Shown here: positions 24,595 through 47,921 of the stretch, one piece after another
How the letters are laid out: the number at the start of each line of letters is the position of its first letter
Position numbering within the stretch: position 1 is the stretch's first letter
Source: Myxococcales bacterium
Lineage (GTDB): Bacteria > Desulfobacterota > Binatia > UTPRO1 > JBBIJE01
Length of the DNA: 64,000 bases
Direction of reading: 5' to 3'
Assembly: GCA_037446155.1 (NCBI GenBank)
Contig: JBBIJE010000008.1
Coordinates: 94,049-158,048, forward strand
Position numbers and translations under genes: made by a program
Notes under the pieces: model-generated
Told to the model about the DNA's origin: nothing
The model's input: only the letters and a program-made list of their open reading frames with translations
The model's database searches: none

Positions 24595-26418
24595 TCAGCC
24601 GGCCGGCGCCTCCTTTTCCTCTGTGCCTAGAGGGCCGTAGCCCTTGGGGTCGTGGTCCTTGCCGTGGCAGGTGAGAAAGCAGCGCCCGCTGTCCGCCCCG
24701 AGTGGTTGAAAGGAGAGAGCCCCGGAGGAGCTGGGCTGGACTATCGGCTCTCCGGTCTCGTCGCGCAGCATGAAATTGATAAGCGCCGGGTTTTGACGCG
24801 AGCCGTGGGGGTCGTGACAGATGGCGCACGAGGATTTTTCCCCGACGATGTGCTTGCGGTGTTTGAAAGGCTGATCGGTAAGGACGGCGGCGCGGTTGTG
24901 GCATTTGTAACAGAGGGCGTACGAGGCGAAAGATTCCTGCACCTCTTGGCCCTCTTGGCGGTATTCGCGCTCGAGAAGGGGCTCGAAATTCGATCCGTGG
25001 GGCCCTGCCGGCCCGGTTCCGCCGGCGCCGGGTCCATCTTCGCTGCTGTGACAGTCTGTACAGTATAAGATACTGCCAGAGGTTAGCGGCGGCTCCAGGC
25101 CGACGATCGTGAAGTTGCGTCCCGGCCCCTCCACGGGGTGGTAGGAGGGGTTTGCAAGATCGAAAGCCAACCTGAGATCGGTCAAGGGGTCTTGGCGCTC
25201 GATCCTCGGGGCGAGCGCGTTCGATATGCCGTGACACTTGAAGCAGACCTCGTACTGAAATTGAGCCTCGGCGATCGAGCTTCCCGCGGCGGTGACTCCT
25301 GAGACGCCCGTCAATGCCCCCGACACCGCCGGAGCCATCCCGGAATCGGGATTCGTCGCATGGGGGTCGTGGCAGTCGACGCACTCCACGTGGCGCGTCA
25401 TGGTGAGCGGGTCCTCGACGGGATCGTGCACGCCGGCTGCGACATCGACCGGATGGCGGCTGAACTTCAGGAACTCCTCAGCGATGTCCTTGGCCGCCAC
25501 GGCTCCGTTGTGACACGCGAGACACACGTCCTCCTCGAGGTCGGATCTGAGCAGCCGGGGGCCGCTCGGGGCCGAGTGCGGCGTGTGGCAGTTCTCGCAT
25601 GCGTTCTCCGCCACGGTTTGAAAGTCGGAGTCGGGCCAAGGGTCGGGGGGCGTTCCGTTCCAGGTTGCGGAAGAGAGCGCGTGGGTGGAGCTCACCCAGC
25701 GATCCGGCCTGTGACAGGCAAGGCAGAGGTCGCCGAACCGCGGGTCGGTGACGAGGAACTTGGGAAACCGGTCGGTATGGGGGTCGTGGCAGCTCGTACA
25801 TTGGAGCTGGCCGGACTGGTCGAGCTTCACGTGACTCGGAAGGAGGTCCGGCGAGACGAGCTCCCCTCGGCGCGAGGCCAGCGTGAGGTCGTAGAGGAAG
25901 GAAATCGGGTGGTCGTCCGAGAGGTCGGTGCCTAGTACCGCACGGCCCGTGAGTGGTCCTGCCGAGGGTGCCGGTCCCCCGCCCGTCTCCCTGATGGCGC
26001 CCAGGGCGAGAGTGCCGTCGTGACAGCTCAGGCAGAGCCGAGAGACGCCGGTCGGCTGCTCGAGCGCCGCTTCCAGTGTCGAGCTTTCGTAAAGCTGATA
26101 CACTTCGAGCGACTGCTCCCGGTTCCAAAGCGCCCGGCTGGGGTTCGCGTTGTGCGGTATGTGGCAGAAGATACAGAGGTTTCCCTCCCCCCCCGCCAGT
26201 CCGATCGATGGATTCGGGACACTCAGATTATGGACCGTCGTCTCGATTCCGGCCTGCGCAAGGGGCACGGCGGGCAAGCGTGCCAAAAGAGCCAGTACCA
26301 GCGCGACGAAGGCCCTGGCGGCTTTGATCCGGGCTCTTTCGCTAACCGCTCGGGTGGCGGTCGCTTGCGCTACAACCGGCGGTCGCAACCCCGAGCAGCA
26401 TCTATTGGCCCCTATCAC
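24595..26418 (-). CDS. Multihaem c-type cytochrome with 11 CxxCH motifs plus one CX3CH (about 12 haems), secreted.
   Basis: Signal peptide ...LLARLPAVPLAQA. Haem motifs are CIFCH, CLSCH, CTSCH, CLACH, CENCH, CLACH, CVDCH, CFKCH, CTDCH, CYKCH, CAICH and CFLTCH. Several are of the doubled CxxCHxPH(N/G) type. Confidence 0.8.
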   Translation of the reverse strand: MIGANRCCSGLRPPVVAQATATRAVSERARIKAARAFVALVLALLARLPAVPLAQAGIETTVHNLSVPNPSIGLAGGEGNLCIFCHIPHNANPSRALWNREQSLEVYQLYESSTLEAALEQPTGVSRLCLSCHDGTLALGAIRETGGGPAPSAGPLTGRAVLGTDLSDDHPISFLYDLTLASRRGELVSPDLLPSHVKLDQSGQLQCTSCHDPHTDRFPKFLVTDPRFGDLCLACHRPDRWVSSTHALSSATWNGTPPDPWPDSDFQTVAENACENCHTPHSAPSGPRLLRSDLEEDVCLACHNGAVAAKDIAEEFLKFSRHPVDVAAGVHDPVEDPLTMTRHVECVDCHDPHATNPDSGMAPAVSGALTGVSGVTAAGSSIAEAQFQYEVCFKCHGISNALAPRIERQDPLTDLRLAFDLANPSYHPVEGPGRNFTIVGLEPPLTSGSILYCTDCHSSEDGPGAGGTGPAGPHGSNFEPLLEREYRQEGQEVQESFASYALCYKCHNRAAVLTDQPFKHRKHIVGEKSSCAICHDPHGSRQNPALINFMLRDETGEPIVQPSSSGALSFQPLGADSGRCFLTCHGKDHDPKGYGPLGTEEKEAPAG

Positions 26419-26431
26419 GTTCCCTCCCTGC

Positions 26432-28525
26432 TCAAAATCTTCTGATGACCTCCAGTGCCACCCTGTCTTCGCGACTATCGGTTGCCAGGACGGAGCGATT
26501 GAAATGATCGTAGCTGAGCGTCCATTCGAGCGCGCGAAGCTCCCCTCTGATCCGCCCCCCGAAATCGAAAAAGTCGGTATCGCCGGAGAGCGAATCGCGC
26601 CGAAGCCTAGCCCCGGCGAACGTCTCGAGCTGAAAAAGGGTGACCGGACGCCAGGTCATGTTGGCGCGAAACGTGTAGAATTCGGTTTCTCGGGTCGGGT
26701 TTTCGAAGCTAACCAACGACTGCGATCCACTCAGGCCCACCCTGAGCCGCGGTGTGAACCTGTACACCACGACTTGGTTGAAATCGAAAGATTCGAAGGT
26801 AAGGCGCTCCGAGCGGTAGTTACGATACTGGTTGAACGCCGAAGCGATCGCCGCCCCGCGCTCCCAGCGAAGCTCCACTCCGGCCGTGTCAGATTTTATG
26901 TCCTCGAGAAATCCCTGATCGTCGCCGCTCATCAGCCTTTCGTAGGTGCGCTCGTTGATGTAGAAAATATGGATCAGGCCGAAGTCGAGACCCACATTGG
27001 AGCTTACAGCGGTCGTCGAGAAACGCAACTCGGGCGGCACTTCGAAGGTATAGTCAACGAGAACCGTTTGCCCTTCCGCGATCAGCCCGAGCGGGTTGCG
27101 CTCCACCTCCAGCCTATCTCCCACCACCGTCAGGCTGTAATCGGGTCCCTCTTCGAAAATCGTCGTTCCGGTCACGTCCGTTATGACTACCGTCGCCGGA
27201 TCGACACGGCGGTTGTCGAGGAAGAACGTGCCGGCGGGACCGAAAGTGTGGCTTTCTGCGAAGACGTCGATCCTGCCTGTCGGGACCGTCTGGTCGTCGA
27301 TCCGATACGACCCTGCCACGCCGGCCAGAAAAAACCCCTGCCACGGGATGCGCTTGCGGTACGAAAGATTCGCGTTGGGGCCGTAAGAGGTGAAATCGCC
27401 TTGGGTGAAGTCCGAGCGTGTGCCGCTTAGCAAAAGGGAACTGTTTAGCGACTGATAATATTGATGGTTGACGCCGACCGAGCCTGAGTGGGTTCTGGTT
27501 TCCGAAAACTCCGATTCCAGGTTCGCGAAGCTGTACCTATAGACGGTGGCGAGGTCCCGGTGATGGGTAAGCCGCAAACCCTCGCTCGCCGTTATCGAGC
27601 GGGACGAGATACTGCCCGAGCGGTCGAAGAGACGGGCCGAGGAGTTGAGGCTGTTATTCGAGAACTCCCCAAAAAGGAGCCGATGGACCACGCTTGCGTC
27701 GTGAGCGGTAAAGCTGCTGAAGGGGTTGAGCAGGTTGTCGAAGTCGGTGAACTCGTAGCGCAGATCGGCGTCGCTTCGTTCTTTCGAATGTCGCGCCGTC
27801 AACCCGGCGATCCGCCGCCTCTCCTCGCGCTCGGAGCGTGAGCCCGCGGCCCTGAACTCCTCGTCCAATTCTTCCTCGCGGGCGTAGACCGTGGCCGGGA
27901 GCGTTCTCGATCTCATGTTGACAGTCGCCCCTTTGGATTCGATCCTGACGTCGGAGGTCCCGGCGAAGTCGCGAGATATCGTGCTGTCGTTGCGAAAAGC
28001 GAAAGCGTCGAGGCTTATTCTTCGCTCTCTCAAGAGCGTCGCCCGCGCATCGTAGCCTATGAGCGTTCCGTCGCCGCTCGGCCCTCCGGCGCTTCCGGAG
28101 TTCTCCTCTTGGAACAAGCCGAACTCCCCTGCAAGCCGAAAGGACAAGAGGTCGGGGCTGTACAGAAAACCTCGGTTGTGGATTCCCAACCTCTCGCGAG
28201 CGAGGAGCCTGCGTAAAGTTACGTCCTCGCCCGAAGCCGGTGAAACGGTTTCGTCGCTGTAATCGGCCCGGCCGATTATCCTACCCCCCCAATCTCCCAC
28301 GCTCAGCCACTGCGCTTCGGCCTTAGCGCCGCCGAGCGCCTGCAACATGGAGCACCCGAGCCCGAGGGCCACCAGCCGGAGAATGCGCCCGCCGGCTCTT
28401 GCGTGCTTCTCGATTGGGCGCCCGCGAGCGAAGGGGCTCTTGGTATCGCCCGCCGTTCCGTTGGTGCTTACCGCCGCGGCAGCCGCACGAGGTCGGAGTG
28501 CGACAAGTTCCCAGTCAGCAGCCAC
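26432..28525 (-). CDS. Outer-membrane beta-barrel protein (porin-like). The exact start is uncertain; a signal-peptide-like segment RILRLVALGLGCSMLQALGGAKA lies about 50 codons into the ORF.
   Basis: 697 aa. C-terminal ...VIRRF ends in Phe, as in Omp85/porin-type barrels. Alternating amphipathic beta-strand pattern rich in Y/F/R/D/S. Its stop is 14 bp upstream of the multihaem cytochrome start. Confidence 0.5.
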   Translation of the reverse strand: MAADWELVALRPRAAAAAVSTNGTAGDTKSPFARGRPIEKHARAGGRILRLVALGLGCSMLQALGGAKAEAQWLSVGDWGGRIIGRADYSDETVSPASGEDVTLRRLLARERLGIHNRGFLYSPDLLSFRLAGEFGLFQEENSGSAGGPSGDGTLIGYDARATLLRERRISLDAFAFRNDSTISRDFAGTSDVRIESKGATVNMRSRTLPATVYAREEELDEEFRAAGSRSEREERRRIAGLTARHSKERSDADLRYEFTDFDNLLNPFSSFTAHDASVVHRLLFGEFSNNSLNSSARLFDRSGSISSRSITASEGLRLTHHRDLATVYRYSFANLESEFSETRTHSGSVGVNHQYYQSLNSSLLLSGTRSDFTQGDFTSYGPNANLSYRKRIPWQGFFLAGVAGSYRIDDQTVPTGRIDVFAESHTFGPAGTFFLDNRRVDPATVVITDVTGTTIFEEGPDYSLTVVGDRLEVERNPLGLIAEGQTVLVDYTFEVPPELRFSTTAVSSNVGLDFGLIHIFYINERTYERLMSGDDQGFLEDIKSDTAGVELRWERGAAIASAFNQYRNYRSERLTFESFDFNQVVVYRFTPRLRVGLSGSQSLVSFENPTRETEFYTFRANMTWRPVTLFQLETFAGARLRRDSLSGDTDFFDFGGRIRGELRALEWTLSYDHFNRSVLATDSREDRVALEVIRRF

Positions 28526-28759
28526 AGGTCATGCATCCTCCACTTTCGGATCTCGGCCGACCGGCCCGACCGCGATAGCCCTGGGAACAATAACGGCAGC
28601 GCGACTCTACAGCCAGCAACCTCCCCCCACCCTCTGGTGTCCTGCAAGCCCAGACGCGAGCTTGCGCCGGCTAGACGGCATTCAGAGCCTAGCGCAAGGG
28701 GGGGAAATCTACAATAATGATTCGTGTCGCGACAATCGCGGTCGAAAGAGGGGAAAGGT

Positions 28760-29905
28760 ATGCGGATCTACGCAGACGCGGGGGGCTCGGCACTTGGTTG
28801 CGTGCAGCGAAGAGGGCTGCGGGCGGGGCTCGTTGCGGTCGCGGGCCTGGTGGCGACGGTGTTCCTTAGCGGCTGCCCTGCTCGGAAATCGGGCATGGAG
28901 CTTATACCGCTCATGTGGCCCGAGCCCCCCGAGACTCCGAGAATCCGGTTCGTCACGGCCTTCGCCAGCGAAAGGGATTTGAGGAGCGGCTTCGATGTGG
29001 GCAAGTTCCTGCAGGACGTCGTCATCGGAAAGCCGCCGCCTGTTTGGCACCTCTACGCTCCGATGGGCGTGGCGGTTTCCGATGACAAGCGGGTTTACGT
29101 TGCCGACTATGGGCAATCGATGGTTTACATATTCGACCTCAAGCGAAACCGCGTAAAAACCATCGGGGAGGACGGAGGCTTCGGTAAGCCCACGGATGTA
29201 GCGGTTGACGCCAAAGGGGAGGTGTACGTTCTCGATCAGCCGAGCAACGCGGTGGTTGTACTCGATGCCGACGGCAATTCGCTTCGGGGCATGGCGCTCG
29301 AGCACGTTATTCGCCCGACCGGGATAGCGATCGACGACCAAAGAGGGCGCATGTACGTGGCGGACTCCTCGAAAAGGGAGTCTACCGAGCACTATGTCAG
29401 GGTGTACGATAAAGAGAGCGGAGCGTTTATCCGAAACATCGGTAACGGCAGGGGATTCGAGGAGGGAAACCTCTACTTTCCCACCTTCGTTGCGGTGGAC
29501 AGCACGGGGAATATCTACGTCTCGGACACGATGAATAGCCGCGTGGTGAAATTCGACCCCGAGGGGAATTTTCTCATGACCTTCGGTAAGAGGGGGGACC
29601 AGTTCGGCGAGTTCGACAAGCCCAAGGGGGTAGCTCTCGATACCTTTGGCAACCTCTACGTGGTCGACTCGAGCTGGAGCAACGTCCAGATCTTCAATCA
29701 ACGTGGCCAGGTCCTTCTCTTCTTCGGTGGCAGAAGCCGCTACCCTGGCATGCTCGAGAACCCAACCGGGATAGACATAGACGGGAATAACACGATTTAC
29801 GTGGCCGATACCTTCAACCGCCGCGTGAACGTCTATCAACTGGTAAATACCACCGCAGGGGACAGCTTTCTCCAGTTGCCCGAGCCGAGCGGGGAGGAGA
29901 AGTGA
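28760..29905 (+). CDS. NHL-repeat six-bladed beta-propeller lipoprotein.
   Basis: Lipobox FLSGC. Repeated NHL blades P.GVAVD..G.VYVAD..N..V..FD. Start chosen at ATG 28760, which has a GAGGGGAAAGG RBS (the ORF-track start at 28724 is a GTG). Confidence 0.7.
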   Translation: MRIYADAGGSALGCVQRRGLRAGLVAVAGLVATVFLSGCPARKSGMELIPLMWPEPPETPRIRFVTAFASERDLRSGFDVGKFLQDVVIGKPPPVWHLYAPMGVAVSDDKRVYVADYGQSMVYIFDLKRNRVKTIGEDGGFGKPTDVAVDAKGEVYVLDQPSNAVVVLDADGNSLRGMALEHVIRPTGIAIDDQRGRMYVADSSKRESTEHYVRVYDKESGAFIRNIGNGRGFEEGNLYFPTFVAVDSTGNIYVSDTMNSRVVKFDPEGNFLMTFGKRGDQFGEFDKPKGVALDTFGNLYVVDSSWSNVQIFNQRGQVLLFFGGRSRYPGMLENPTGIDIDGNNTIYVADTFNRRVNVYQLVNTTAGDSFLQLPEPSGEEK

Positions 29906-30714
29906 AAGGCGCTGGGAGAGCCGCGCGCGCCGCCGTCGTTGTCGGGACGCTTATCGCCGTTGCAGCTTGTCCTCGATTCGCGGCTGGCGGGCCGGATCCT
30001 GGAACCGGCATTACCGATAGCCCCCACGACCTAACCGCGGGGCACGGAACCGCCTCGACGACCGACGAAGCCGCAAGCATTTGCGTCTTTTGTCATGCGC
30101 CTCACGGAGGGGGCGGCCAGGCGCCCGTCAGCACGAGGCTTCTCTGGAACCACAGGCTTTCCGCCCAAAGCTTTAGCTGGAGCGATCAAACCCATACGGT
30201 TGGGGGGACGGAGCTTCCGACCAACATAGGCACATGGGCGGGGCCCAGCAAGAATTGCTTGTCTTGCCATGATGGGACGGTCGCGGTTGGCGATGTTCTG
30301 CGCACCGGTTCTCCTGGGCTCCCCTCGTTTACCGTGACAGGCTCCCGCCTCGTTGACGGGAAGATCGCCGCGGGTAACCTCATCGTGGTCGAACCGGGCG
30401 GAGATTTGAGCGGAAACCACCCGGTCGGTGTGCCCTATCCTTTCGGAGGTGTGCCCAGCACTTACAACAACATCGCCACGGGGCCAGGTGTGGAGCTTTC
30501 CGAGTACGTTGCCGCGCCGGTAAACGTCAAGCTCTTCACCGACATCGGAAATGACGTGATAACCGGACCGACGACCGGGAGGACAGGGATCGAGTGCGGA
30601 AGTTGCCACGACGTTCACAACCGACGGGCCTTGGATCGCCCTCTGTTGCGAGACCTTTTCACGTCGGGGGCAGGGGCTTCGGCGCGTCTTTGCTTGGACT
30701 GCCATAATCTCTGA
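29902..30714 (+). CDS. Tetrahaem c-type cytochrome (doubled-CxxCH type), paralog A.
   Basis: Signal peptide VVVGTLIAVAA. Haem motifs CVFCHAPHG, CLSCHDGT, CGSCHDVHN and CLDCHNL. The GTG start overlaps the NHL gene stop. Confidence 0.75.
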   Translation: MKGAGRAARAAVVVGTLIAVAACPRFAAGGPDPGTGITDSPHDLTAGHGTASTTDEAASICVFCHAPHGGGGQAPVSTRLLWNHRLSAQSFSWSDQTHTVGGTELPTNIGTWAGPSKNCLSCHDGTVAVGDVLRTGSPGLPSFTVTGSRLVDGKIAAGNLIVVEPGGDLSGNHPVGVPYPFGGVPSTYNNIATGPGVELSEYVAAPVNVKLFTDIGNDVITGPTTGRTGIECGSCHDVHNRRALDRPLLRDLFTSGAGASARLCLDCHNL

Positions 30715-30822
30715 GGCTCTCCGGGCCGCGGCATTTCTCGCAGAGCTTAACTCTAGGCCCATCGTCGCGGCTCTATTGCCCACGGGAGGGGTTTTATCTC
30801 GGCATCCTGCGCAGCGACGGGC

Positions 30823-30859
30823 TGCGAGAATCTCCGCAGCCGCTGCGCGAGAATCCGCA
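30823..30859 (+). promoter_or_regulatory. Tandem 16-bp dyad elements TGCG-N8-CGCA (candidate enhancer or UAS for a sigma-54 activator).
   Basis: TGCGAGAATCTCCGCA (30823-30838) and TGCGCGAGAATCCGCA (30844-30859). Their centres are 21 bp apart, about 75-110 bp upstream of the sigma-54 promoter at 30933. Confidence 0.45.
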
Positions 30860-30932
30860 ATCCAAGGGCGCGAGTTTCGGGCGCCGAGGCGGTAACATAT
30901 GGAGAAAGCAGACGTTTTTTTATCCTGGCATG

Positions 30933-30948
30933 TGGCATGAGAGTTGCT
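30933..30948 (+). promoter_or_regulatory. Sigma-54 (-24/-12) promoter upstream of tetrahaem cytochrome paralog B.
   Basis: TGGCATgagagTTGCT has correct GG/GC spacing. It lies 60 bp upstream of the ATG at 31009. Confidence 0.55.
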
Positions 30949-31008
30949 CGAAGGGCGTGCCAGGGGCGCCGGTGGCGTGACCCAAATTTCAGGAAGAGGA
31001 GGAAAGCT

Positions 31009-31815
31009 ATGAACGTTAGAAAAGGGTGCCACGTAACAGTAGCCTTGTGCGCGGGGCTTGCGCTGGCGCTCGCTCCTAAGCTCGTGTGGGCCCAGGCCGC
31101 ACCGGGTGCGGGAATCGAAGATAGCCATCACGATTTCACAGCCGGGCACGCGACCGCCTCGACGACCGATGCCGGAGCGGGGATTTGCATCTTTTGCCAT
31201 GTACAGCACCGGCAGGGGGCTCCAGCGACTGCCAGCACGAGGCTTCTTTGGAACCACAAGCTCTCGTCGTTGAGCTACTCATGGAGCGACGTTACCAAGA
31301 CGGTCGGTGGGACGGATTTGCCGACCAACCTTGGGACTTGGGCCGGGCCTTCGAAGAACTGCCTCTCTTGCCACGACGGGACGGTCGCGGTGGGTGATGT
31401 GTACCGTACCGCCGCATTCCCCGCGACGTCGTTCACGGTCACCGGGACCCGGATCACCGATGGGAAGATCAGCGCAAGCTTTCTCCTGATCCCGAGCGCC
31501 ACTGGCGATCTCAAGGGTAACCACCCGGTCGGCGTGCCCTATCCCTTCGGCGGGGCGCAGAGCACGTACAATGGGATCACCACCGGCTCGGGCGTAGCCA
31601 CCGGTGATTACAAAGCCGATCCGCAAAACGTCCGCATCTACACCGACGTGGGCAACGATTACCAGATCGGTGGAACCACCGGGCAGGCCGGAATCGAGTG
31701 CGGAAGCTGCCACGACCCGCACAACAGGGACGTCAAGGAAGATCCGCTTCTTCGCGATTTCTTCACGCTCGGGAGCGGTTCTCCGAGCGCGATCTGCCTA
31801 GACTGCCACTTCTAG
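31009..31815 (+). CDS. Tetrahaem c-type cytochrome (doubled-CxxCH type), paralog B.
   Basis: RBS AGGAAGAGGAGGAAAGCT-ATG. Haem motifs CIFCHVQH, CLSCHDGT, CGSCHDPHN and CLDCHF. It is collinear with paralog A along its whole length, including the shared NCLSCHDGTVAVGDV block. Confidence 0.75.
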   Translation: MNVRKGCHVTVALCAGLALALAPKLVWAQAAPGAGIEDSHHDFTAGHATASTTDAGAGICIFCHVQHRQGAPATASTRLLWNHKLSSLSYSWSDVTKTVGGTDLPTNLGTWAGPSKNCLSCHDGTVAVGDVYRTAAFPATSFTVTGTRITDGKISASFLLIPSATGDLKGNHPVGVPYPFGGAQSTYNGITTGSGVATGDYKADPQNVRIYTDVGNDYQIGGTTGQAGIECGSCHDPHNRDVKEDPLLRDFFTLGSGSPSAICLDCHF

Positions 31816-31863
31816 TTGGCAGGCTGGCCGCGCGGCGCGTGCTAGCCGCTCGGCTGAGGAATG

Positions 31864-31897
31864 AACCCGGGGAGCGATAGGCTCCCCGGGTTTTTTT
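31864..31897 (+). terminator. Rho-independent terminator.
   Basis: cccggggagc-gata-ggctccccggg forms a perfect 10-bp GC stem and is followed by TTTTTTT. It lies 49 bp after the paralog B stop. Confidence 0.75.
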
Positions 31898-31973
31898 GAT
31901 TCCGCTCTCCCTGCGCGGCGGGCCCTGTGCTAACCTTTCCTAAATGAGGTGGACTTGCCGTCGGATGGGGGGG

Positions 31974-33141: not shown

Positions 33142-33179
33142 CCAGCCCGGGCTGCGAGAAAATCCGCAACGCGCTGCGT
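33142..33179 (+). promoter_or_regulatory. Dyad element TGCG-N8-CGCA with a degenerate second copy 22 bp downstream (candidate UAS).
   Basis: TGCGAGAAAATCCGCA (33142-33157) and TGCGTGATTCCCCGCT (33164-33179). They lie about 130-165 bp upstream of the sigma-54 promoter at 33308. Confidence 0.4.
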
Positions 33180-40665: not shown

Positions 40666-40813
40666 CTCCCCCCGGCCCGCGCAATTAGATCACAGGACCG
40701 ACTTGGATGTGAAGAGGGCTGGCGTGATCTTTCCCGTCGCGATACTCTCGCTCGCGCCCGGGCTCTTCTCCCATTATAATCTAATGAGTTAGGTCCTTCG
40801 GGAAGGAGACGAA

Positions 40814-41899
40814 ATGGTTTCAGGAAATCGCAAGAGAGTGGCTGTCGTCGGTGCTACCGGTATAGCCGGCCAGCAGTTCTTGGTGGCCTTGGCGGGCCAC
40901 TCCTCCCTGGAAACGGCGGTGCTTGCCGCCTCGTCCCGCTCGGCCGGCCGAAGCTACGAGGACGCCCTGAGAGACCAGAAGACAGGCGCCATGCGCTGGT
41001 GGTGCGGGCAGGCGCCACCGGCGGATGTCTTGAAATTGCCGGTGGTTGATGCTACCGAGCTCGACCCAACCTCGGTCGATCTGGTCTTCTCTGCCGTGGA
41101 GAGCGACGCCGCAAGGGATCTCGAGCCTCGCTACGCGCGCCATGTCCCGGTCATAAGCACCGCTTCCGCTTTTCGGTATGAGGACGACGTGCCGCTGCTC
41201 ATACCCGGCGTCAATCTCGAGCATGCGCCGCTCATAGACCTGCAGCGGAAGAAGCGCGGCTGGCGGGGATTCATCGCTCCTATCCCCAACTGTACCACGA
41301 CCGGCCTGGCGATAGCGCTGAAGCCGCTCCAGCAGCGGTTCGGCGTAGAAAGGGTGGTGATGACCTCGATGCAGGGGATCTCCGGTGCGGGGCGCTCGCC
41401 TGGAGTGGTCGCGCTCGATATCGTGGACAACATCATCCCCTTCATTCCCGGCGAGGAAGAGAAGGTGGCGCGGGAGACCAAAAAGATCCTCGGTGTCTTG
41501 GCGGAGGGGGCGGTACGGCCGGCGGACATAGTGGTGAGCGCTACCTGCACGAGGGCTTGCGTCACCGAAGGGCACACAGAGTCGGTTTCGGTGGCTACCA
41601 GCAAACCCTGTCCCCCCGAAGAGGTGCGGGAGGCCATGCGGGGCTATGACGGCGGGTTACGGGGACTTTTCTCGGCACCGGAGCACCTTATTTTGGTGAA
41701 CGACGACCCCTTTCGGCCCCAGCCGCGCGTGGATCGGGACGCTGAAGGGGGGATGGCCACGACCGTCGGCAGGATCCGGCCGGACCCGGTGTGGGAGAAC
41801 GGCGTGCGCTTCTTGCTCGTTTCCCACAACACCAAGATGGGCGCGGCCAAGGGGGCCGTTTTGGTGGCGGAAGCGCTTTTGCGTGACGGCTATTTATAG
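40814..41899 (+). CDS. asd: Aspartate-semialdehyde dehydrogenase.
   Basis: VAVVGATGIAGQ NAD(P)-binding motif. Active-site cysteine in IPNCTTTGL. 361 aa. Confidence 0.85.
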   Translation: MVSGNRKRVAVVGATGIAGQQFLVALAGHSSLETAVLAASSRSAGRSYEDALRDQKTGAMRWWCGQAPPADVLKLPVVDATELDPTSVDLVFSAVESDAARDLEPRYARHVPVISTASAFRYEDDVPLLIPGVNLEHAPLIDLQRKKRGWRGFIAPIPNCTTTGLAIALKPLQQRFGVERVVMTSMQGISGAGRSPGVVALDIVDNIIPFIPGEEEKVARETKKILGVLAEGAVRPADIVVSATCTRACVTEGHTESVSVATSKPCPPEEVREAMRGYDGGLRGLFSAPEHLILVNDDPFRPQPRVDRDAEGGMATTVGRIRPDPVWENGVRFLLVSHNTKMGAAKGAVLVAEALLRDGYL

Positions 41900-41937
41900 G
41901 GGGCCGGCGGGGCAGGCGGCTGGCACAGGGCGGAGCG

Positions 41938-42774
41938 ATGGGTCGTTTGCGCAAGCGTATCGTGGATTTTCTGACTCGCGAGCTCACCAAGCCGCACGGG
42001 ACCTACCAGCGCACGGCACCCAACGACCTCGAGAATCTAAAGCAGGCCATAAAAAAGGGTGACGTCCTTCTGGTCGAAGGTGACCAGCGGGTAAGCGAAG
42101 TCATAAAATACCTCACCCAGAGTTCCTGGTCCCACTCGGCGATTTATATCGGCGACGAGCTGCTTCGGCGCTATCCGGAATTGAAGGAGCCCATCCTTCG
42201 GCAATTCGGTGAAGAGGCCCGCTATCTGATCGTCGAGGCGCTGGTGCACGAGGGAGTCACCGCATCGCCGCTTTCGAAGTACATCGACTTCAATATCCGT
42301 ATCTGCCGCCCCCACAATTTGCGGCGGGACGACCTCCAGCAGATCCTCGATGACGTGATCGCGCAGATCGGTGACCGGTACGACATAAAAAACTTGGTAG
42401 ATCTGGCCAGGTATTTCCTGCCCGTAACCCTGGTGCCCCGGCGCCTGCGCCGCAGCGCGCTGCAGTTCGCAAGCGGCCTGCCCACCCAGGTGATTTGCTC
42501 GAGTCTGATCGCCAAGGCCTTTCACAAGGTCGGCTACCCCATAATTCCGACGGTTACGGAGCAGGTGGAAGCGCGGGGCGCGGGGAGAAGAAGCTGGCGG
42601 GAACGCTTAGGACTTGGCGGCCGCAGCAAGCAACGGGCATGGCTCTTCCGAAAACGACCCGTGCGGCTCATTACGCCGCGGGACTTCGATTTGTCCCCTT
42701 ATTTCGAGGTGGTAAAGTTTAACTACCTCGCTGGAGCGGGTTTCGATTACAAGAAAATCCGCTGGGCTGACTGA
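41938..42774 (+). CDS. YiiX-family permuted papain-like hydrolase (putative).
   Basis: The region GDVLLVEGDQRVSEVIKYLTQSSWSHSAIYIGD resembles the conserved YiiX/DUF830 core, with candidate catalytic S/H/C residues in permuted order. Confidence 0.35.
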   Translation: MGRLRKRIVDFLTRELTKPHGTYQRTAPNDLENLKQAIKKGDVLLVEGDQRVSEVIKYLTQSSWSHSAIYIGDELLRRYPELKEPILRQFGEEARYLIVEALVHEGVTASPLSKYIDFNIRICRPHNLRRDDLQQILDDVIAQIGDRYDIKNLVDLARYFLPVTLVPRRLRRSALQFASGLPTQVICSSLIAKAFHKVGYPIIPTVTEQVEARGAGRRSWRERLGLGGRSKQRAWLFRKRPVRLITPRDFDLSPYFEVVKFNYLAGAGFDYKKIRWAD

Positions 42775-42847
42775 TCGGCGGACAAAAGACAAGTCACGAC
42801 CTGGGCGGCGGCGGTCCCCACAAATCTGTGTGGTTTCACTCACCCGC

Positions 42848-42884
42848 TGCGGAAAAGCGCGCACCGCGTGAGAATTGCCGCGGT
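42848..42884 (+). promoter_or_regulatory. Dyad element TGCG-N8-CGCA with a degenerate GAGAAT-containing copy about 21 bp downstream (candidate UAS).
   Basis: TGCGGAAAAGCGCGCA (42848-42863), then CGCGTGAGAATTGCCGCG. They lie about 90-125 bp upstream of the sigma-54 promoter at 42973. Confidence 0.4.
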
Positions 42885-42972
42885 CATTGTTGTGGCGGCC
42901 TTCGTGTGTAACTGCGCCTCGTTTAAAGGCCTTCGCTAGGCCCCGCGGGTGTGGTGGCGCTGCAATTGCTGA

Positions 42973-42988
42973 CGGCATGCGGCTTGCA
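42973..42988 (+). promoter_or_regulatory. Sigma-54 (-24/-12) promoter upstream of the haem/PKD/NHL paralog operon.
   Basis: cGGCATGcggcTTGCA has correct spacing. It lies about 55 bp upstream of the TTG start at 43043. Confidence 0.55.
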
Positions 42989-43042
42989 TCGGCCTGTCCG
43001 CGGTCCCAGTGTCTCAAGCCTGGGGCAGGAGGGGCATGCGTC

Positions 43043-45517
43043 TTGTGCCGGAAGCTTGCTAGCGCTGCGATCGTCGGTCTGTTTTTCCTTGGCCTTGCCG
43101 GGGGAAGCGCACTTGCCGACCCGAGCTACTTCGCCATCCGCTGCGCCCTTTGCCACTATGACGACAACCCGACCTGCTCCGGCTGCCATCAGCACGTTCA
43201 GGGCGGCCTCGTGGCGAGGACCGACAAGACTCAGTACTGGCCCGGCGAAACCGTAAGAGTGACGCTTTCGTCGTGGGACTGGCCGGGTTGGGTGCGGGCG
43301 ATCCTTTACGACCAGAGTGGGCGCGAGCTCACGCGCGTAGGCGGGGCCACCGGAACCGGCGACGACGGAAGCGGCAATCCCGCGCTCGAGCTCCCCGTGG
43401 TCTTGGTTGCCCGCGCTCCCCTGACGGCGGGGTCTTACAGGTGGACCGTGGCGTGGTTTGGCAGCGGAGGCTCTCCCGGCAACGAGTTTCCCCATCTGGA
43501 AGAGCCGGTACCGACGAACTCCTTCGACGTCAGCGGCAGTCCCCCCAGTACGACGACCACCACCACGTCCTCCACTACTACGACCGTTCCAAGCACCACG
43601 ACGACCACCACCACCACGACCACCACCACGGCGACCGCGACCACGACCAGCACTACCGCGAGCACTACGACCACGAGCACCTCCTCCACCACCTCCACGA
43701 CGCTTCCGGGCCCCCTCGACGATTTCCTCTGTTACAAGGTGCGGGCTAGGCAGGACGTCAGCGTAAATTTGAGCGATCAGTTCGATTCGGGCCAATATCT
43801 GGGGAGGGTGGCAAAGCTTCTCTGCGCGCCGGCTGACAGCGGCTCGGGTATATCGCACCCGCAAACGCACCTTATGTCTTATCGGATCCAGGGGCCCCAC
43901 CTGCGGCGAACGGGCATCGAGGTGGTGAACCGTTTTGGCACCTATTACTTCGACACCAAGAAGACCTACAGCCTCATGGTGCCTACGGCAAAGAGCCTGA
44001 TTCCCGACCCGCCGCCGGGGCCGCCTGACGCCGGCGCCGTGGACCACTATCGGTGTTTGACTATAAGGACAACGACGGGCACGCCCGAATTTCCAAATGG
44101 GCTTACGATTGCCGTAACCGACCAGTTCGGAACCCACAACTTCGCGATCAAGAAGCCGCGCACCCTCTGCGTGCCCACCGACAAGAATGGAGAGGGAATC
44201 GAGCGGCCACAGGCATACCTTACCTGTTACAAGGGAAAGGCTGACCCGAGGGTGTCCGTTGCAGGGGTCCAAGTCAACAATCAGCTTGGGCAAGCCGTGT
44301 TGAACCTGAGCAAAGAGATAGAGCTTTGCGTGGCCTCTCAGCCGCCACCTGGACCAACCACGACTACGACGACCACGACGAGCAGCACGACCAGCACCAC
44401 GGTCACGCCCACTAGCACCACTACCACCACGACCACCGTGCCGGGCAACGAGCCGCCGACGATCGCCGTTAGCGCCGATCGCACTGAAGGGCCCATAGCC
44501 TTGAGCGTTCGGTTTAGCGCTTCGGCTACCGACCCCGATGGAGAGGTCGTTGCGATCCACTGGGATTTCGATGACGGCACGGTGGGGAGCGGGGCTTCGC
44601 TTTCTCACGTATTTCACGTGGCCGGCGGCTACAGAGTTACCGCCACGGCAACCGACAACCGGGGAGGGCAGGCACGGGCTACGATCCCAATAGCGGCAAG
44701 GCCGCTCGCGGGCGGGTCCGTGGATCAGCCGTATCCGACCCGCCTGGCGCTCGGACCCCAGGGGAAGCTCTACGTAACCGATGCCTCCGCCGGGTCGGTC
44801 TTCGTTTACGATTCTAGTTTGAATCCTGCGGGCGAAATCGCTGGGATCGATCTTCCCTTGGGTGTGGCGGTCGACAGCCAGGGGCGAATTTACGTGGGTA
44901 GCGACGGGGCCGACTCGGTCGAGGTCTACGACGGCGCCGGGGTCAAGCTTTACAGCATCGATGCGGGCGGGATCTCGATGCCGAACGACATTGTCATAGA
45001 TACCGCGGACATTCTCTACGTCGTCGATAGCCGGGCGGATACGGTGCGAGTGTATAACGCCGCAGGCACGTGGCTTAGAGACATCGGGGGCCCGGGCGAC
45101 GGTGCGGGAGAGTTGCGCTTTCCCGCCGCGGTGGCCATCGGCGGCGAGCCGCCGGAGCTTTACGTAGCCGATCAGGGCCACTCGCTCGTTCAGGTTTTCG
45201 ATCCCGGCGGAACGTTCCTGCGCAGTTTCGGCGGGGCGGTGGGGGCGTTTTCACCGCAATGGAAGGGCCTCTTCGTGAGGATGCAGAGCCTTTCGCTGGA
45301 TGGACGCGCAGCCTTGCAAGTGGCTGATACCTACATGGATCGGGTGCAGTTTCTCGATCGCACGACGGGTGAGTTTCGCGGCTACTACGGCGAGTTCGGC
45401 GGTGGCGCCGGGCAGCTCAATCTACCCCTCGACCTGGTGGTTACTGGGGACAACCGAGCCATCGTGGCGGACGCGGAAAACCACCGGATCCAGTGGTTCG
45501 ATCTCGAGGTGCCCTAA
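43043..45517 (+). CDS. Secreted paralog of the giant cytochrome. Same N-terminal dihaem module, Thr-rich linker and four cysteine-containing repeats, followed by a second Thr-rich linker, a PKD domain and a C-terminal NHL beta-propeller.
   Basis: TTG start 10 nt after AGGAGG. Signal peptide ...LASAAIVGLFFLGLAGGSALA. Haem motifs CALCH and CSGCH. The PKD domain shows IHWDFDDGT. Repeated NHL blades LYVTDASAGSVFVYD and LYVVDSRADTVRVYN. It is collinear with 33416..37330 over the first 430 aa or so. Confidence 0.75.
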   Translation: MCRKLASAAIVGLFFLGLAGGSALADPSYFAIRCALCHYDDNPTCSGCHQHVQGGLVARTDKTQYWPGETVRVTLSSWDWPGWVRAILYDQSGRELTRVGGATGTGDDGSGNPALELPVVLVARAPLTAGSYRWTVAWFGSGGSPGNEFPHLEEPVPTNSFDVSGSPPSTTTTTTSSTTTTVPSTTTTTTTTTTTTATATTTSTTASTTTTSTSSTTSTTLPGPLDDFLCYKVRARQDVSVNLSDQFDSGQYLGRVAKLLCAPADSGSGISHPQTHLMSYRIQGPHLRRTGIEVVNRFGTYYFDTKKTYSLMVPTAKSLIPDPPPGPPDAGAVDHYRCLTIRTTTGTPEFPNGLTIAVTDQFGTHNFAIKKPRTLCVPTDKNGEGIERPQAYLTCYKGKADPRVSVAGVQVNNQLGQAVLNLSKEIELCVASQPPPGPTTTTTTTTSSTTSTTVTPTSTTTTTTTVPGNEPPTIAVSADRTEGPIALSVRFSASATDPDGEVVAIHWDFDDGTVGSGASLSHVFHVAGGYRVTATATDNRGGQARATIPIAARPLAGGSVDQPYPTRLALGPQGKLYVTDASAGSVFVYDSSLNPAGEIAGIDLPLGVAVDSQGRIYVGSDGADSVEVYDGAGVKLYSIDAGGISMPNDIVIDTADILYVVDSRADTVRVYNAAGTWLRDIGGPGDGAGELRFPAAVAIGGEPPELYVADQGHSLVQVFDPGGTFLRSFGGAVGAFSPQWKGLFVRMQSLSLDGRAALQVADTYMDRVQFLDRTTGEFRGYYGEFGGGAGQLNLPLDLVVTGDNRAIVADAENHRIQWFDLEVP
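43549..43705 (+). repeat. Low-complexity ACC/ACG codon repeat encoding a Thr/Ser-rich linker; a second copy lies at 44355-44441.
   Basis: Encodes TTTTTSSTTTTVPSTTTTTTTTTTTTATATTTSTTASTTTTSTSSTTSTT. The complementary strand gives artefactual poly-Val ORFs (43435..43698 and 44338..44580). Confidence 0.5.
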
Positions 45518-45529: not shown

Positions 45530-47380
45530 ATGAAAAGCAGCGTGATCAAGGGAACGGGCCTGCTCTTTGCCGTGGCGGTCCTGTGCCTGCCTTCGAGATC
45601 GCAGGCGCTCGATCCCCCTCACAATGCGAGCAACCACATCGACTGTAACTCTTGTCACGCCGTGGTCCCCGCCTTCATCCCGCTTCGCCAAAGGCAGGAG
45701 AGCGCCTGCAAGACCTGTCACAACCCGACCGGTCAGGCATCCACCCGTTCGACTGCGCTTCGGAACCACGTGGTAAACGGGGGGAGCAAGATCGTGGATT
45801 GCGGATCCTGTCATGATCCGCACGGTCCCTCGATCACGACGGATCCCCATACCGGGCGGAGAGCGACCAACCTTTGGTTGATCCGCTGGGATACGGCTAA
45901 GTACGTTGCGGGGGCCCTGGAGCCCGCGATCTTTCACGAGCGGCCGGCGCATTTCGCGTTCGGCGACGCCAATCCGCCTTGGAACGGCGCATGCCAGACC
46001 TGCCACGCGCAGACGAGCCATCATCGTAACGACGCCACATCCGACCACAGCCACCAGTTGGGAGATGACTGCACGCAATGCCATCTTCACGGAAGCGGCT
46101 TTTTGCCCGCCGGGGGTGGCGGGGACTGCACGGGCTGCCACAGCGGGCCGCAGGACAACGGGGACGGAGTTCCGCCGGGCGGTCGGCGCGCTGTGGTTTC
46201 CGAGTTTCCGACCGGAGACGAGGGCCTACACGCCCATTACGGGGCGGAGCTTGGAAGCGACGACTGCGTCATCTGCCACAGCCAGGATACGCACATGGAC
46301 GGATACGTGGACCTGATCGATCCCGACGACGGCAGCATGTACCGCTTCAAGCTCAGGGGAGATCTCTTATCCGATCCTGATCTCTCCGATTTCTGCGCTC
46401 ACTGCCACGACGCCGATGGCGCCGCGCGGCTGGCCACTCCGCTGGATCCCTTCGGGAACGGAAACGCACCGCCCGATGTCGCCACGCGCTTCCAGGGAAC
46501 CCTCAGGTGGGACGAGTGGTACGGTGACTTCTGCTTCGGCGAGGAAGGTACGCTGCGCCAGGTCAACAGTCACCATGACATCAGCGACTCCGATCAGGCC
46601 TGGAGCGGAGCGAAGATCGAATGCCTAAGCTGCCACGGGGCGCACAACCCTTCGGCCGCTCGCCCCGTCGTCGATCCCTTCGACACCGCGACTCCGTGGA
46701 CCGGAAAGGACAACGGATTTTGCTTGAGCTGCCACGCCGGCGGAAACGGACCCGCCGATCCGGACTTCCCCGCCGGTGTCGTCGGCCCGGCAGTTCCTCT
46801 GCGCGGCCTCGATACTTGCTACTACACGGGCGGGCCCTGGTGGGTCGATTATACCTGGACACACGCGGCGCACGGTCTCGACTCCAAGCGCGCTTGGTCG
46901 GGTTACTCGGGCGCGCCGGGATACGAACTGCCCTGTCTCGGGTGTCACGACCCGCACGGGTCCTATACGCCCGCCAACCCGGCCGGGAATCCTTATATGA
47001 TCCGGGACTTCGTCGATGGGACGCAATTCGTGGACGACGGGACGCGCACCGGAGGCTTCACCGGTCCCCCCTGGAACACGTTCGGTACCTCGGGCCCGGT
47101 GGTCGTGACGATAAGCGGCACCGACGTGGATTGGGGAAGCTCGCAGAGTCTGTGTGGCCGCTGCCATGCAAGTTGGCTTGCGGCCTACGACTGGCACGCG
47201 TACTGTACGGGTTGTCAAACTTGCCACGGTCACGGCCAGGCGTGGGGCAACGCCGACTGGGTCGGTTTTGACGACGACACCCCGTGCCCGGTAGGGGGGA
47301 GCGGCATTGCTGGGGGCACCGGATCGGGCCGGCTGCTCTTCGACCGCAAGAACCCGCCAATTCATTTCGGGGCGCAGTAA
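45530..47380 (+). CDS. Secreted multihaem c-type cytochrome with 13 CxxCH motifs.
   Basis: Signal peptide LLFAVAVLCLPSRSQA. Haem motifs CNSCH, CKTCH, CGSCH, CQTCH, CTQCH, CTGCH, CVICH, CAHCH, CLSCH, CLSCH, CLGCH, CGRCH and CQTCH. It starts 12 bp after the upstream stop, so it is in the same operon. Confidence 0.8.
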   Translation: MKSSVIKGTGLLFAVAVLCLPSRSQALDPPHNASNHIDCNSCHAVVPAFIPLRQRQESACKTCHNPTGQASTRSTALRNHVVNGGSKIVDCGSCHDPHGPSITTDPHTGRRATNLWLIRWDTAKYVAGALEPAIFHERPAHFAFGDANPPWNGACQTCHAQTSHHRNDATSDHSHQLGDDCTQCHLHGSGFLPAGGGGDCTGCHSGPQDNGDGVPPGGRRAVVSEFPTGDEGLHAHYGAELGSDDCVICHSQDTHMDGYVDLIDPDDGSMYRFKLRGDLLSDPDLSDFCAHCHDADGAARLATPLDPFGNGNAPPDVATRFQGTLRWDEWYGDFCFGEEGTLRQVNSHHDISDSDQAWSGAKIECLSCHGAHNPSAARPVVDPFDTATPWTGKDNGFCLSCHAGGNGPADPDFPAGVVGPAVPLRGLDTCYYTGGPWWVDYTWTHAAHGLDSKRAWSGYSGAPGYELPCLGCHDPHGSYTPANPAGNPYMIRDFVDGTQFVDDGTRTGGFTGPPWNTFGTSGPVVVTISGTDVDWGSSQSLCGRCHASWLAAYDWHAYCTGCQTCHGHGQAWGNADWVGFDDDTPCPVGGSGIAGGTGSGRLLFDRKNPPIHFGAQ

Positions 47381-47398: not shown

Positions 47399-47567
47399 GT
47401 GACCCTAAACCTCCCCATGGGACGATAGCGGCTGGCTGCGGGCTCGAGTTGCCGCCGCCCCGCCCCGCGCAACCAGTTCTATTTCAGCGTGTTTTATGGG
47501 GCGAGGAGCGAGTCGATCGCTGGGATTTGCGGCGGCGCCTGAGACCTGGCCGCCGGAGGTAGGAGCC

Positions 47568-47921
47568 ATGGCAGGAAGAATCGTAAGGATAGTCGCTCTT
47601 GTAGGATTAGCGGCCGTTTTGGCAGCGCCCGGCCAGGCCTGGGCCGGCCGCTGGCACGGACACCGCTTCGGCCACCACCACGGGCACCACGACGGCTCTT
47701 TGGCGCTCGGTGTCGCCGGTGCAATAGTCGGCACTGCGCTTTTGGCCGACGTGCTCGTCGGCCGTCCCCAAGTGATCGTGACCACGCCCCCCCCGTATTA
47801 TGGAGGCTATTACCCTTACGCCCCTTGCCCCCCTCCCTACGGATCTTATTGGCACGGTTATCGCGACGGCTTCTACGAGGGGCGCCACTATCGCAGGCGG
47901 TACCGCTACTGGGGTTACTGA
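47568..47921 (+). CDS. Small secreted protein of 117 aa, rich in His, Gly, Pro and Tyr (hypothetical).
   Basis: RBS GGAGGTAGGAGCC-ATG. Signal peptide IVALVGLAAVLAAPGQAWA. His cluster GRWHGHRFGHHHGHHDG. The C-terminal PPPYYGGYYPYAPCPPPYGSYWHGYRDGFYEGRHYRRRYRYWGY is Tyr-rich. Confidence 0.45.
   Translation: MAGRIVRIVALVGLAAVLAAPGQAWAGRWHGHRFGHHHGHHDGSLALGVAGAIVGTALLADVLVGRPQVIVTTPPPYYGGYYPYAPCPPPYGSYWHGYRDGFYEGRHYRRRYRYWGY

Follow-up and report, generated by a model that had tools for sequence, protein, structure and literature searches.

In this study, we analyzed a 64-kb stretch of DNA from a Myxococcales bacterium (contig JBBIJE010000008.1; hereafter the window) and found that the gene cluster at 24.6-33.0 kb is probably an outer-surface electron-transfer locus of the OmcE/Uet type, as judged from sequence comparison and structural modelling. 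The components of this core, their families, their Sec signals and the lipobox of an NHL protein were identified by homology and modelling. Two OmcE-like tetrahaem cytochromes are encoded together with a large outer-membrane beta-barrel and a beta-propeller lipoprotein, a combination used as a criterion by Petersen et al. (10.1101/2025.10.22.684050), and the cluster also contains an undecahaem cytochrome and two c7-type trihaem cytochromes (Table 1). A first-pass annotation, made from the sequence alone, had read the region in broad terms as an extracellular electron transfer (EET) system. This call is now backed by homology to OmcE, by the Uet inventory and by an OcwA-like domain in a large secreted protein. 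The match of the gene set to the described omcE and Uet clusters had been missed, and neither the two tetrahaem genes nor the N-terminus of the 11-12-haem protein had been recognized as OmcE homologues.

The only convincing match of tetrahaem cytochrome 1 (270 amino acids, aa) to a solved structure was the OmcE filament subunit of Geobacter sulfurreducens (PDB 7TFS; phmmer E 1.4e-15, query residues 27-269 against OmcE 20-231). To collect related loci, one genome per species was scanned with the Geobacter OmcE sequence (rebuilt from an alignment), which gave 80 loci; later counts are over 83 loci, designated here by L numbers. Ligands were compared in an alignment of Geobacter OmcE, two more Geobacteraceae OmcEs, both window paralogues, the copy in L001, a metagenome-assembled genome (MAG), and the N-domains of the 607-aa undecahaem protein and its homologue. 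A total of 8 Cys and 8 His were invariant in Geobacter OmcE, both window paralogues and the 607-aa N-domain (the His being H31, H55, H58, H107, H149, H205, H208 and H230 in OmcE numbering). The Cys and four of the His make up the four CxxCH motifs, and the other four His bring the number to what four bis-His-ligated haems need. Subunits of OmcE and OmcS filaments have one haem that is ligated by a His of the adjoining subunit (PMC9473688), and the conserved N-terminal His (within KHDL in OmcE; PHDL, HHDF and VHNL here) is predicted to be this inter-subunit ligand.

L001 has one such gene only, and its product is orthologous to tetrahaem 2 (71% identity), which is likely the major filament subunit. 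With its own sigma-54-like -24/-12 promoter in front and the strongest terminator of the region behind it, the tetrahaem 2 gene makes up a sigma-54 unit by itself, which would suit a structural subunit needed in large amounts. This self-contained unit (30933-31893) also has two dyads and a strong ribosome-binding site. Tetrahaem 1 has a possible lipoprotein signal (...LIAVAAC, 29902-29980) versus an ordinary Sec signal in tetrahaem 2, and one of the two copies may be membrane-tethered, perhaps as a minor or terminal subunit.

The third OmcE homologue is the undecahaem cytochrome. Its N-terminal ~180-200 aa constitute a complete OmcE-like tetrahaem module, which is followed by a 7-8-haem extension. 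The N-domain matched 7TFS with an E value of 1.3e-23 and the Desulfuromonas soudanensis OmcE bundle (9YUQ) with 1e-16, and the protein also matched Pfam Paired_CXXCH_1 (E 1e-31). Its CX3CH motif (CFLTCH) is kept in the L001 homologue. The true start is probably ~15 codons inside the open reading frame (ORF); the gene call in a close relative has 592 aa. Full-length 11-CxxCH proteins with an OmcE-like N-domain were found in about 28 of the 83 loci, including those of Gallionellaceae, Aromatoleum and Gammaproteobacteria, and no such fusion was seen in Geobacter-type loci within 10-kb flanks. The profile behind this listing included the OmcE-like domain and served only to list full-length and split forms. 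A jackhmmer search with the C-terminal extension drifted into multihaem cytochromes at large and was discarded. A split form, in which an OmcE-like tetrahaem gene is followed by a 7-haem gene, occurs in two Nitrospirota MAGs (L039 9560-11380 and L049 14061-15967) and in an unclassified MAG (L081 2298-4192), so that full-length and split genes make up a natural fusion/fission pair.

Adjacent to the undecahaem gene, the 697-aa protein was modelled as a large beta-barrel by AlphaFold2 (AF2) together with its homologues (predicted local distance difference test score, pLDDT, 87), as had been supposed at first pass. The model, which like all AF2 models contains no haems, has ~29 long antiparallel strands and an inserted ~65-aa domain. 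The protein ends in a C-terminal Phe, a typical feature of outer-membrane proteins, and matched no Pfam family at E <= 0.01. Homologue searches returned 13 sequences (word-indexed search), reached four loci (BLAST) or stopped at 12 loci (iterated hidden Markov model, HMM), and the HMM found direct relatives beside OmcE-like genes in Acidobacteriota, Nitrospirota and a betaproteobacterium. The iterated HMM did not reach the Geobacter barrel family, and the link to it was made by profile-profile comparison only; a reversed-sequence control was therefore added. In hhalign, the 33-member Geobacter/Desulfuromonadales family encoded directly downstream of omcE was matched with a probability of 97% (E 1.3e-10, 581 columns; reversed control 0.6%), and the Rhodocyclales/Gallionellaceae family with 98% (E 2e-13, 300 columns; reversed control 3.3%).

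The remaining core genes encode an NHL propeller lipoprotein, whose homologue adjoins the OmcE-like gene in 75 of the 83 loci, and two c7-type cytochromes matching TIGR04257 (nanowire_3heme). The ATG of the second c7 gene overlaps the stop codon of the first (ATGA, 32645-32648), which suggests translational coupling.

This inventory resembles the uet cluster described in Ca. Tenderia electrophaga and some Gallionella. There, UetA is a tetrahaem cytochrome predicted to be extracellular, UetB a peptidyl-prolyl isomerase (PPIase), UetC a barrel with 28 predicted strands, UetD/E/G are c7 trihaems, UetF is a cupredoxin, UetH/I are NHL proteins, and UetJ is an undecahaem cytochrome with a doubled CXXCH pattern and 11-12 motifs; VWA-type Bat proteins are encoded downstream, and the genetically unproven role proposed for Uet is electron uptake (10.1101/2022.05.06.490989; PMC9900912). 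The Tenderia set was compared by its published description. On this basis, the window has counterparts of UetA (twice), UetC, UetD/E/G (two), the NHL proteins (one free-standing) and UetJ, and VWA-type proteins lie near the Uet genes, as does a protein with sub-threshold VWA-like matches near the core of the window. The hallmarks present are the undecahaem protein with 11 CxxCH and one CX3CH, the ~29-strand barrel, c7 trihaems, and NHL proteins in the form of one lipoprotein and an NHL domain within an 825-aa protein. The window differs in having two c7 proteins instead of three, one free-standing NHL protein instead of two, a duplicated tetrahaem gene and extra giant secreted cytochromes.

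The omcE clusters of G. sulfurreducens and D. soudanensis (7TFS, 9YUQ), whose minimal form comprises two multihaem cytochromes, two propeller lipoproteins, OmcE and a large barrel (10.1101/2025.10.22.684050), share with the window a homologous tetrahaem subunit with all haem ligands conserved, a propeller lipoprotein directly upstream of the tetrahaem gene, a remotely related barrel family and multihaem cytochromes within the cluster. However, Geobacter has separate 9- and 8-haem cytochromes, no OmcE-fused undecahaem protein and no c7 genes inside the cluster, whereas the window has no glycosylation island nearby. Further systems were set beside the window by description. In the osc cluster of G. 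sulfurreducens, the filament subunit OmcS is encoded with paralogues and with proteins proposed to act in folding, secretion (OscE/F/G) and morphology (Shen et al. 2025, as cited in PMC13194489); the likeness is one of concept, OmcS being a hexahaem protein without sequence similarity to OmcE. Desulfovibrio ferrophilus IS5 (DFE_448-451, DFE_461-465) likewise co-expresses multihaem cytochromes with NHL propellers, which were proposed to stabilise an outer-membrane cytochrome complex, the role of beta-barrels in iron reducers (PMC5815863). The porin-cytochrome conduits MtrAB and OmbB-OmcB, to which the first-pass annotation had turned, are not the closest comparators. The barrel had no MtrB_PioB match (Pfam, E <= 0.01) and only a generic structural similarity, with ~29 strands as opposed to 26 in MtrCAB of Shewanella and OmaB-OmbB-OmcB of Geobacter, while the DmsE/MtrA decahaem model TIGR03508 scored 59.8 bits against a cut-off of 192.2 and the MtrC/OmcA model fell far below its cut-off. 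The core is a locus of a described kind that differs by subunit duplication, divergent layout, loss of the second propeller, co-regulated stalked proteins and haem-sensor/sigma-54 control.

Among the sources of the 80 loci from the species scan are Geobacter, Desulfuromonadales, Acidobacteriota, Nitrospirota, Rhodocyclales, Gallionellaceae, Gammaproteobacteria and Myxococcota. In loci of the Geobacter type, the order is 9-haem, 8-haem, propeller, OmcE, 740-780-aa protein, propeller. A second order, NHL, OmcE-like, barrel, NHL, undecahaem, recurs in Acidobacteriota (L029, L032, L038), a betaproteobacterium (L052) and L001, the last of which also carries two c7 genes in the order of the window. 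UetJ-like genes are common in loci of Gallionellaceae, Rhodocyclales, Sedimenticola and Chromatiales. Since the Gallionellaceae and Rhodocyclales loci were retrieved as OmcE homologues and also show a Uet-like order, the omcE and uet clusters appear to be variants of a single system; our literature search found no paper stating this link.

Several other features of these loci were recorded. A Desulfuromonadales MAG (L046 10816-17787) has a 2324-aa ORF with 43 CxxCH motifs directly after its OmcE-like gene, and ~1025-aa ORFs with 24 CxxCH motifs lie in the same clusters of gammaproteobacterial loci (L074 2569-5646, L083 6693-9767, L063 4508-7588). OmcE homologues were also present in Acidobacteriota, Myxococcota and a Ca. 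Neomarinimicrobiota single-cell genome (L029, L032, L038, L073, L080, L042), accompanied by a barrel and propellers in the Acidobacteriota loci L029, L032 and L038. All three of these groups lie beyond the five phyla listed in the 2025 OmcE preprint (10.1101/2025.10.22.684050). On the opposite strand beside the cluster of L001, a Rieske/cytochrome b complex and c-type cytochromes are encoded (5342-8687); this complex could be the inner-membrane link, and no equivalent of it was identified in the window.

Next to the cluster, a sensor histidine kinase and an NtrC-type activator are encoded. The sensor domain of the kinase, which has a single CxxCH, matches PF21563 (Mcp40H-20 sensor), a family that goes back to haem-c sensor domains in two Geobacter chemoreceptors, GSU0582 and GSU0935. 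In L046, L059 and L080, the OmcE-like genes have a homologous pair of kinase and activator beside them (activator identity 52% in L046), with exactly one CxxCH in each of the L046 and L059 kinases; in L059 and L080, a -24/-12 element also precedes the OmcE-like gene by 70-80 bp. Haem-sensor/sigma-54 control recurs in three unrelated lineages.

In the window, three sigma-54-like promoters were identified, each with one or two CTGCG-N8-CGCA dyads 90-160 bp upstream, and the activator gene lies in cis. The dyad occurs six times versus 1.35 expected, a number reached in one of 100 shuffles, and all copies are intergenic. The N8 spacing was found after two dyad patterns of other spacing had given nothing relevant. 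Promoters and dyads alike are kept in the close relative. The dyad at 21692-21708 has no promoter element nearby. Thus, the sigma-54 wiring with a shared dyad suggested at first pass stood for these three promoters; the plain consensus, in contrast, was not enriched across the window (8 matches vs. 3.75 expected), so that support for sigma-54 control rests on position and the dyad. No rpoN gene lies in the 64-kb window. On the sequence evidence, three units, including those of both large secreted proteins, appear to share the same genetic switch. In this scheme, the kinase would sense the periplasmic redox state or a ligand via its c-type haem and drive the activator, which would bind the dyads and open the sigma-54 promoters.

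The 1304-aa and 825-aa proteins share 56% identity over their first ~430 residues. This shared part starts with a Sec signal and a pair of CxxCH motifs that lie 11 residues apart, continues with a ~120-aa domain and a poly-Thr/Ser linker of 45-60 aa, and closes with two DUF7450 units (PF24247; a Pfam domain whose function is unknown). Each unit consists of two sub-repeats of ~45-50 aa with conserved Cys. The first-pass description of a head, an S/T linker, four ~45-aa repeats and an effector is thereby confirmed. The full domain order is dihaem Ig-like head, poly-Thr/Ser linker, two DUF7450 and an OcwA-like 12-haem domain in the 1304-aa protein, and dihaem head, S/T linker, DUF7450, a second S/T linker, PKD and an NHL propeller in the 825-aa protein. 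An exhaustive search of 1.84 billion representatives assigned 205 clusters to the head family (141 at E <= 1e-10). The head always directly follows the signal peptide, and its two haems are the only ones in 130 of the 150 best matches, a few proteins carrying more. The C-terminal parts are mostly Ig-like repeats (HYDIN/ASH/Cep192/DUF1573), CARDB, PKD or FG-GAP. A head followed by DUF7450 was found only in the two window proteins and one orthologue. DUF7450 by itself is common (182 matches in a word-limited search), and the search with the DUF7450 region returned DUF7450 proteins, none with a dihaem head. The N-terminal half that they share (head, linker, DUF7450) is uncharacterised, and the earlier impression that the two proteins are unlike described EET systems stands, the head belonging to an uncharacterised family of ~200 clusters and DUF7450 having no assigned function.

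The C-terminal ~850 aa of the 1304-aa protein are collinear with OcwA (6I5B; E 8.6e-18, four segments), the nonahaem surface terminal reductase of Thermincola potens. The window domain differs in having 12 haems instead of nine and in its position behind a dihaem head, a Thr/Ser stalk and DUF7450, and its host has an outer-membrane barrel gene. The protein probably presents a terminal oxidoreductase domain on a long, glycosylatable stalk. Both large proteins are read as surface-exposed accessories on such stalks, and the 1304-aa protein and the second block (825-, 616- and 141-aa proteins) as lineage-specific secreted accessories with the same promoter/dyad signature. The 616-aa, 13-haem cytochrome has no close solved relative. 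The small secreted protein after it had no family match; it contains a His-rich stretch (GRWHGHRFGHHHGHHDG), a hydrophobic segment and a Pro/Tyr/Gly-rich tail, and is kept after the 13-haem gene in the close relative (117-aa gene call in L084). Elsewhere, the head protein P0281 (778 aa, 10 haem motifs including the head; JGI 3300042731) is encoded two genes from NHL and 223-aa doubled-CXXCH genes, a hint that the association of head proteins with OmcE-like modules is not confined to the present organism; P0269, another head-plus-multihaem protein, has no such neighbours.

With regard to the window as a whole, a six-frame scan confined CxxCH-rich ORFs to 24.6-47.4 kb, with four isolated CxxCH motifs in any frame outside the cluster in the whole 64 kb. 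Eight cytochrome genes were found with 54 CxxCH and one CX3CH, 55 motifs in total, instead of the nine genes and about 69 sites first reported. The per-gene counts given at that time (11 plus one CX3CH, 4, 4, 3, 3, 14, 2 and 13) agree with the scan and add up to the same sum. Nor do these genes form one continuous 23-kb island: five unrelated housekeeping genes, encoding an acyl-CoA dehydrogenase, a LysR regulator, a luciferase-like oxidoreductase, Asd (aspartate-semialdehyde dehydrogenase) and a C92 peptidase (Pfam), occupy 37492-42774, and the region is therefore two blocks. A horizontally acquired island was considered and rejected, as GC content is flat across the window (0.60-0.65) and no tRNA genes were found in it; with both signals missing, there is no sign of recent acquisition. 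The close relative (L003/L084; JGI 3300010938, contig Ga0137716_10000031) keeps the whole layout, the five intervening genes included, at 88-98% protein identity.

Pfam searches supported the multihaem domains, the NHL propeller (28724-29905), PKD with NHL, and DUF7450. The VWA/TSP3 assignment of the 822-aa secreted protein was not confirmed, its matches lying below Pfam cut-offs; this protein is 88% identical in L003 and absent from the other OmcE loci. Gene starts in the window are approximate. Two minus-strand ORFs, 30031-31257 (408 aa) and 47607-48851 (414 aa), overlap real plus-strand genes and appear to be shadow ORFs. In this 63% GC DNA, longest-ORF gene calling would mask both tetrahaem genes behind the former.

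Table 1. Features of the electron-transfer region and its surroundings (positions in the window; the CxxCH column gives the ORF of the six-frame scan and its motifs).
Feature	Position	Strand	CxxCH scan	Evidence or remark
Sensor histidine kinase, sCache_3_2 / Mcp40H-20_sensor periplasmic domain	18446-19957	+	CHRCH at 18902	Pfam, CxxCH scan
NtrC-type response regulator (receiver, Sigma54_activat, HTH_8)	20287-21660	+		Pfam
Fifth CTGCG-N8-CGCA dyad, CTGCGTATTATTACGCA	21692-21708	+		just after activator gene, between convergent genes
822-aa secreted protein, sub-threshold VWA-like and TSP3 matches	21879-24347	-		Pfam; association with system uncertain
UetJ-like undecahaem cytochrome	24595-26418	-	24595-26418: 11, plus one CX3CH (CFLTCH)	7TFS/9YUQ matches, ligands, homologues
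Large outer-membrane beta-barrel, 697 aa, UetC-like / omcE-adjacent family	26432-28525	-		model, profile comparison
NHL beta-propeller lipoprotein, lipobox LSGC, UetH/I-like	28760-29905	+		Pfam NHL E 6e-31
OmcE-like tetrahaem cytochrome, paralogue 1, possible lipobox VAAC	29902-30714	+	29902-30714: 4	7TFS match, alignment
Two CTGCG-N8-CGCA dyads, putative activator sites	30822-30838, 30843-30859	+		pattern scan
Sigma-54-like -24/-12 element, TGGCATGAGAGTTGCT	30933-30948	+		~60 bp before tetrahaem 2; conserved in L003
OmcE-like tetrahaem cytochrome, paralogue 2, Sec signal, cleavage VWA/QA	31009-31815	+	30937-31815: 4	alignment
Strong intrinsic terminator, 13-bp stem, T-run	31863-31893	+		closes one-gene unit
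c7-type trihaem cytochrome, long N-terminal region, possible lipobox, UetD/E/G-like	31944-32648	+	31944-32648: 3	Pfam Cytochrome_C7, TIGR04257
c7-type trihaem periplasmic cytochrome	32645-32983	+	32585-32983: 3	Pfam, TIGR04257
CTGCG-N8-CGCA dyad upstream of 1304-aa gene	33152-33168	+		conserved in L003
Sigma-54-like -24/-12 element, CGGCATGCGCCTTGCT	33308-33323	+		~95 bp before 1304-aa gene
1304-aa secreted 14-haem protein	33416-37330	+	33362-37330: 14	Pfam, OcwA alignment, head search
CTGCG-N8-CGCA dyad upstream of second block	42847-42863	+		related site in L084 at 8963
Sigma-54-like -24/-12 element, CGGCATGCGGCTTGCA (TGGCATGCGGCTTGCA in close relative)	42973-42988	+		~55 bp before 825-aa gene
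825-aa secreted protein (880 aa as longest ORF)	43040-45517	+	42875-45517: 2	Pfam, comparison with 1304-aa protein
616-aa 13-haem cytochrome, Sec signal	45530-47380	+	45530-47380: 13	CxxCH scan, Pfam
Small secreted protein, 141 aa, His-rich then Pro/Tyr/Gly-rich	47496-47921	+		probable start ~47568

Taken as an OmcE/Uet-type locus, the core would work as follows. The c7 cytochromes would shuttle electrons through the periplasm, handing them to or receiving them from the undecahaem protein, which, lodged in or at the barrel, would carry them across the outer membrane. Its OmcE-like head would dock on a polymer of tetrahaem 2 via the subunit-joining His-to-haem contact. Geobacter OmcE has been associated with metal reduction, and Uet with the uptake of electrons. 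Since multihaem chains are generally reversible, the sequence does not tell whether electrons are exported (to minerals or partner cells) or taken up. The propeller lipoprotein may aid export or assembly, by analogy with the porin-type secretion model put forward for OmcS (OscE/F/G; PMC13194489) and discussed for OmcE (10.1101/2025.10.22.684050).

A number of observations weigh against this assignment. The PPIase UetB and the cupredoxin UetF were not found among the 19 ORFs scanned with Pfam at 18.4-47.9 kb, the operons are divergent and do not keep the conserved uetA-J order, and there is no second propeller beside the barrel. Both paralogues are 27-31% identical to Geobacter OmcE with ~40 additional loop residues, and they belong to a very large tetrahaem family (>2,500 matches), whose OmcE-like members need not all polymerise (Petersen et al., 10.1101/2025.10.22.684050). 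The relationship of the barrel to the Geobacter family is remote, with 13% identity and a match at the profile level only. Moreover, the divergent region between the barrel and NHL genes has no -24/-12 element, and part of the core may therefore use a non-sigma-54 promoter. The need for OmcE filaments is physiologically disputed even in Geobacter (PMC11077965; PMC13194489), and for the present organism we infer that filaments form, where the undecahaem protein sits and what the propeller does.

The main rival is a non-filamentous conduit of the Mtr/Pcc type, in which the undecahaem protein would thread the barrel as MtrA does in MtrB and the tetrahaems would be monomeric surface or periplasmic proteins. 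The barrel and multihaem genes are indeed adjacent, the Uet authors proposed such an arrangement for UetC/UetJ (10.1101/2022.05.06.490989; PMC9900912), and filaments have been shown for two OmcE homologues only (10.1101/2025.10.22.684050). However, we consider it unlikely here: all eight OmcE ligand His are conserved, including the N-terminal His read as inter-subunit, and the tetrahaem 2 gene lies between a strong promoter and a terminator of its own, a usual arrangement for structural subunits made in large amounts. The failure to match MtrB_PioB and the low DmsE/MtrA score (59.8 vs. 192) also speak against it, although the principle could still apply. Far less probable is a periplasmic multihaem reductase for a soluble substrate (nitrite, hydroxylamine, sulfite or tetrathionate). 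OcwA, the nearest solved relative of the 1304-aa C-terminal domain, is in the NrfA-related lineage, and a weak match to an NrfB-type pentahaem subunit was seen, but no NrfA, NrfD, CxxCK or sirohaem partner was present among the window proteins scanned. The barrel and the OmcE homologues in the gene set, together with the long Thr/Ser linkers, PKD and Ig-like domains typical of surface proteins, make a periplasmic reductase hard to credit.

A different alternative keeps the same hardware and reverses it, so that the locus would be a lithotrophic or electrotrophic electron-uptake pathway instead of one for dissimilatory metal reduction, as proposed for Uet in Ca. Tenderia and Gallionella. We regard this as a substantial possibility, short of an even chance. 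The inventory (undecahaem, c7, NHL and a 28-30-strand barrel) is closer to Uet than to the Geobacter omcE cluster with its 8- and 9-haem cytochromes, and both the lineages rich in UetJ-like genes and the Rieske/cytochrome b complex of L001 would fit. On the other hand, the window contains no carbon-fixation or oxidase genes that would point to lithoautotrophy, and the 1304-aa protein has, in its OcwA-like domain, a relative of a terminal reductase.

Within the OmcE/Uet-type reading, we tentatively put forward a more specific and rather doubtful proposal: that the UetJ-like undecahaem protein might be the base or tip adaptor of OmcE-type nanowires. Its N-module would join the filament via the inter-subunit His-haem bond, and its 7-8-haem tail would pass through the ~29-strand barrel and reach the c7 cytochromes in the periplasm, the Nitrospirota pair of an OmcE-like gene and a 7-haem gene being the unfused form. 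In this organism, stalked surface proteins of a new class (dihaem Ig-like head, Thr/Ser linker, DUF7450, variable effector) would belong to the sigma-54/haem-sensor regulon as well and act with the filament. If true, such an adaptor would account for the anchoring and charging of OmcE-type filaments.

The export and anchoring of cytochrome nanowires, the way they start and end, and their supply with electrons are still to be explained, and Desulfuromonadia omcE operons have no OmcE-like candidate for the filament end (Petersen et al., 10.1101/2025.10.22.684050). Here and in about 30 related loci, such a candidate is encoded beside the barrel in the form of an OmcE-like module with a haem-rich extension fused to it, and the fused module gives a concrete model. 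The locus also flags an uncharacterised secreted-protein architecture and offers a simple regulatory handle, with a haem-sensor kinase, a sigma-54 activator and a defined dyad. Finally, our comparison suggests that metal reducers (omcE cluster) and electron-uptake bacteria (Uet cluster) have versions of the same widespread machine, which matters for reading EET potential from metagenomes.

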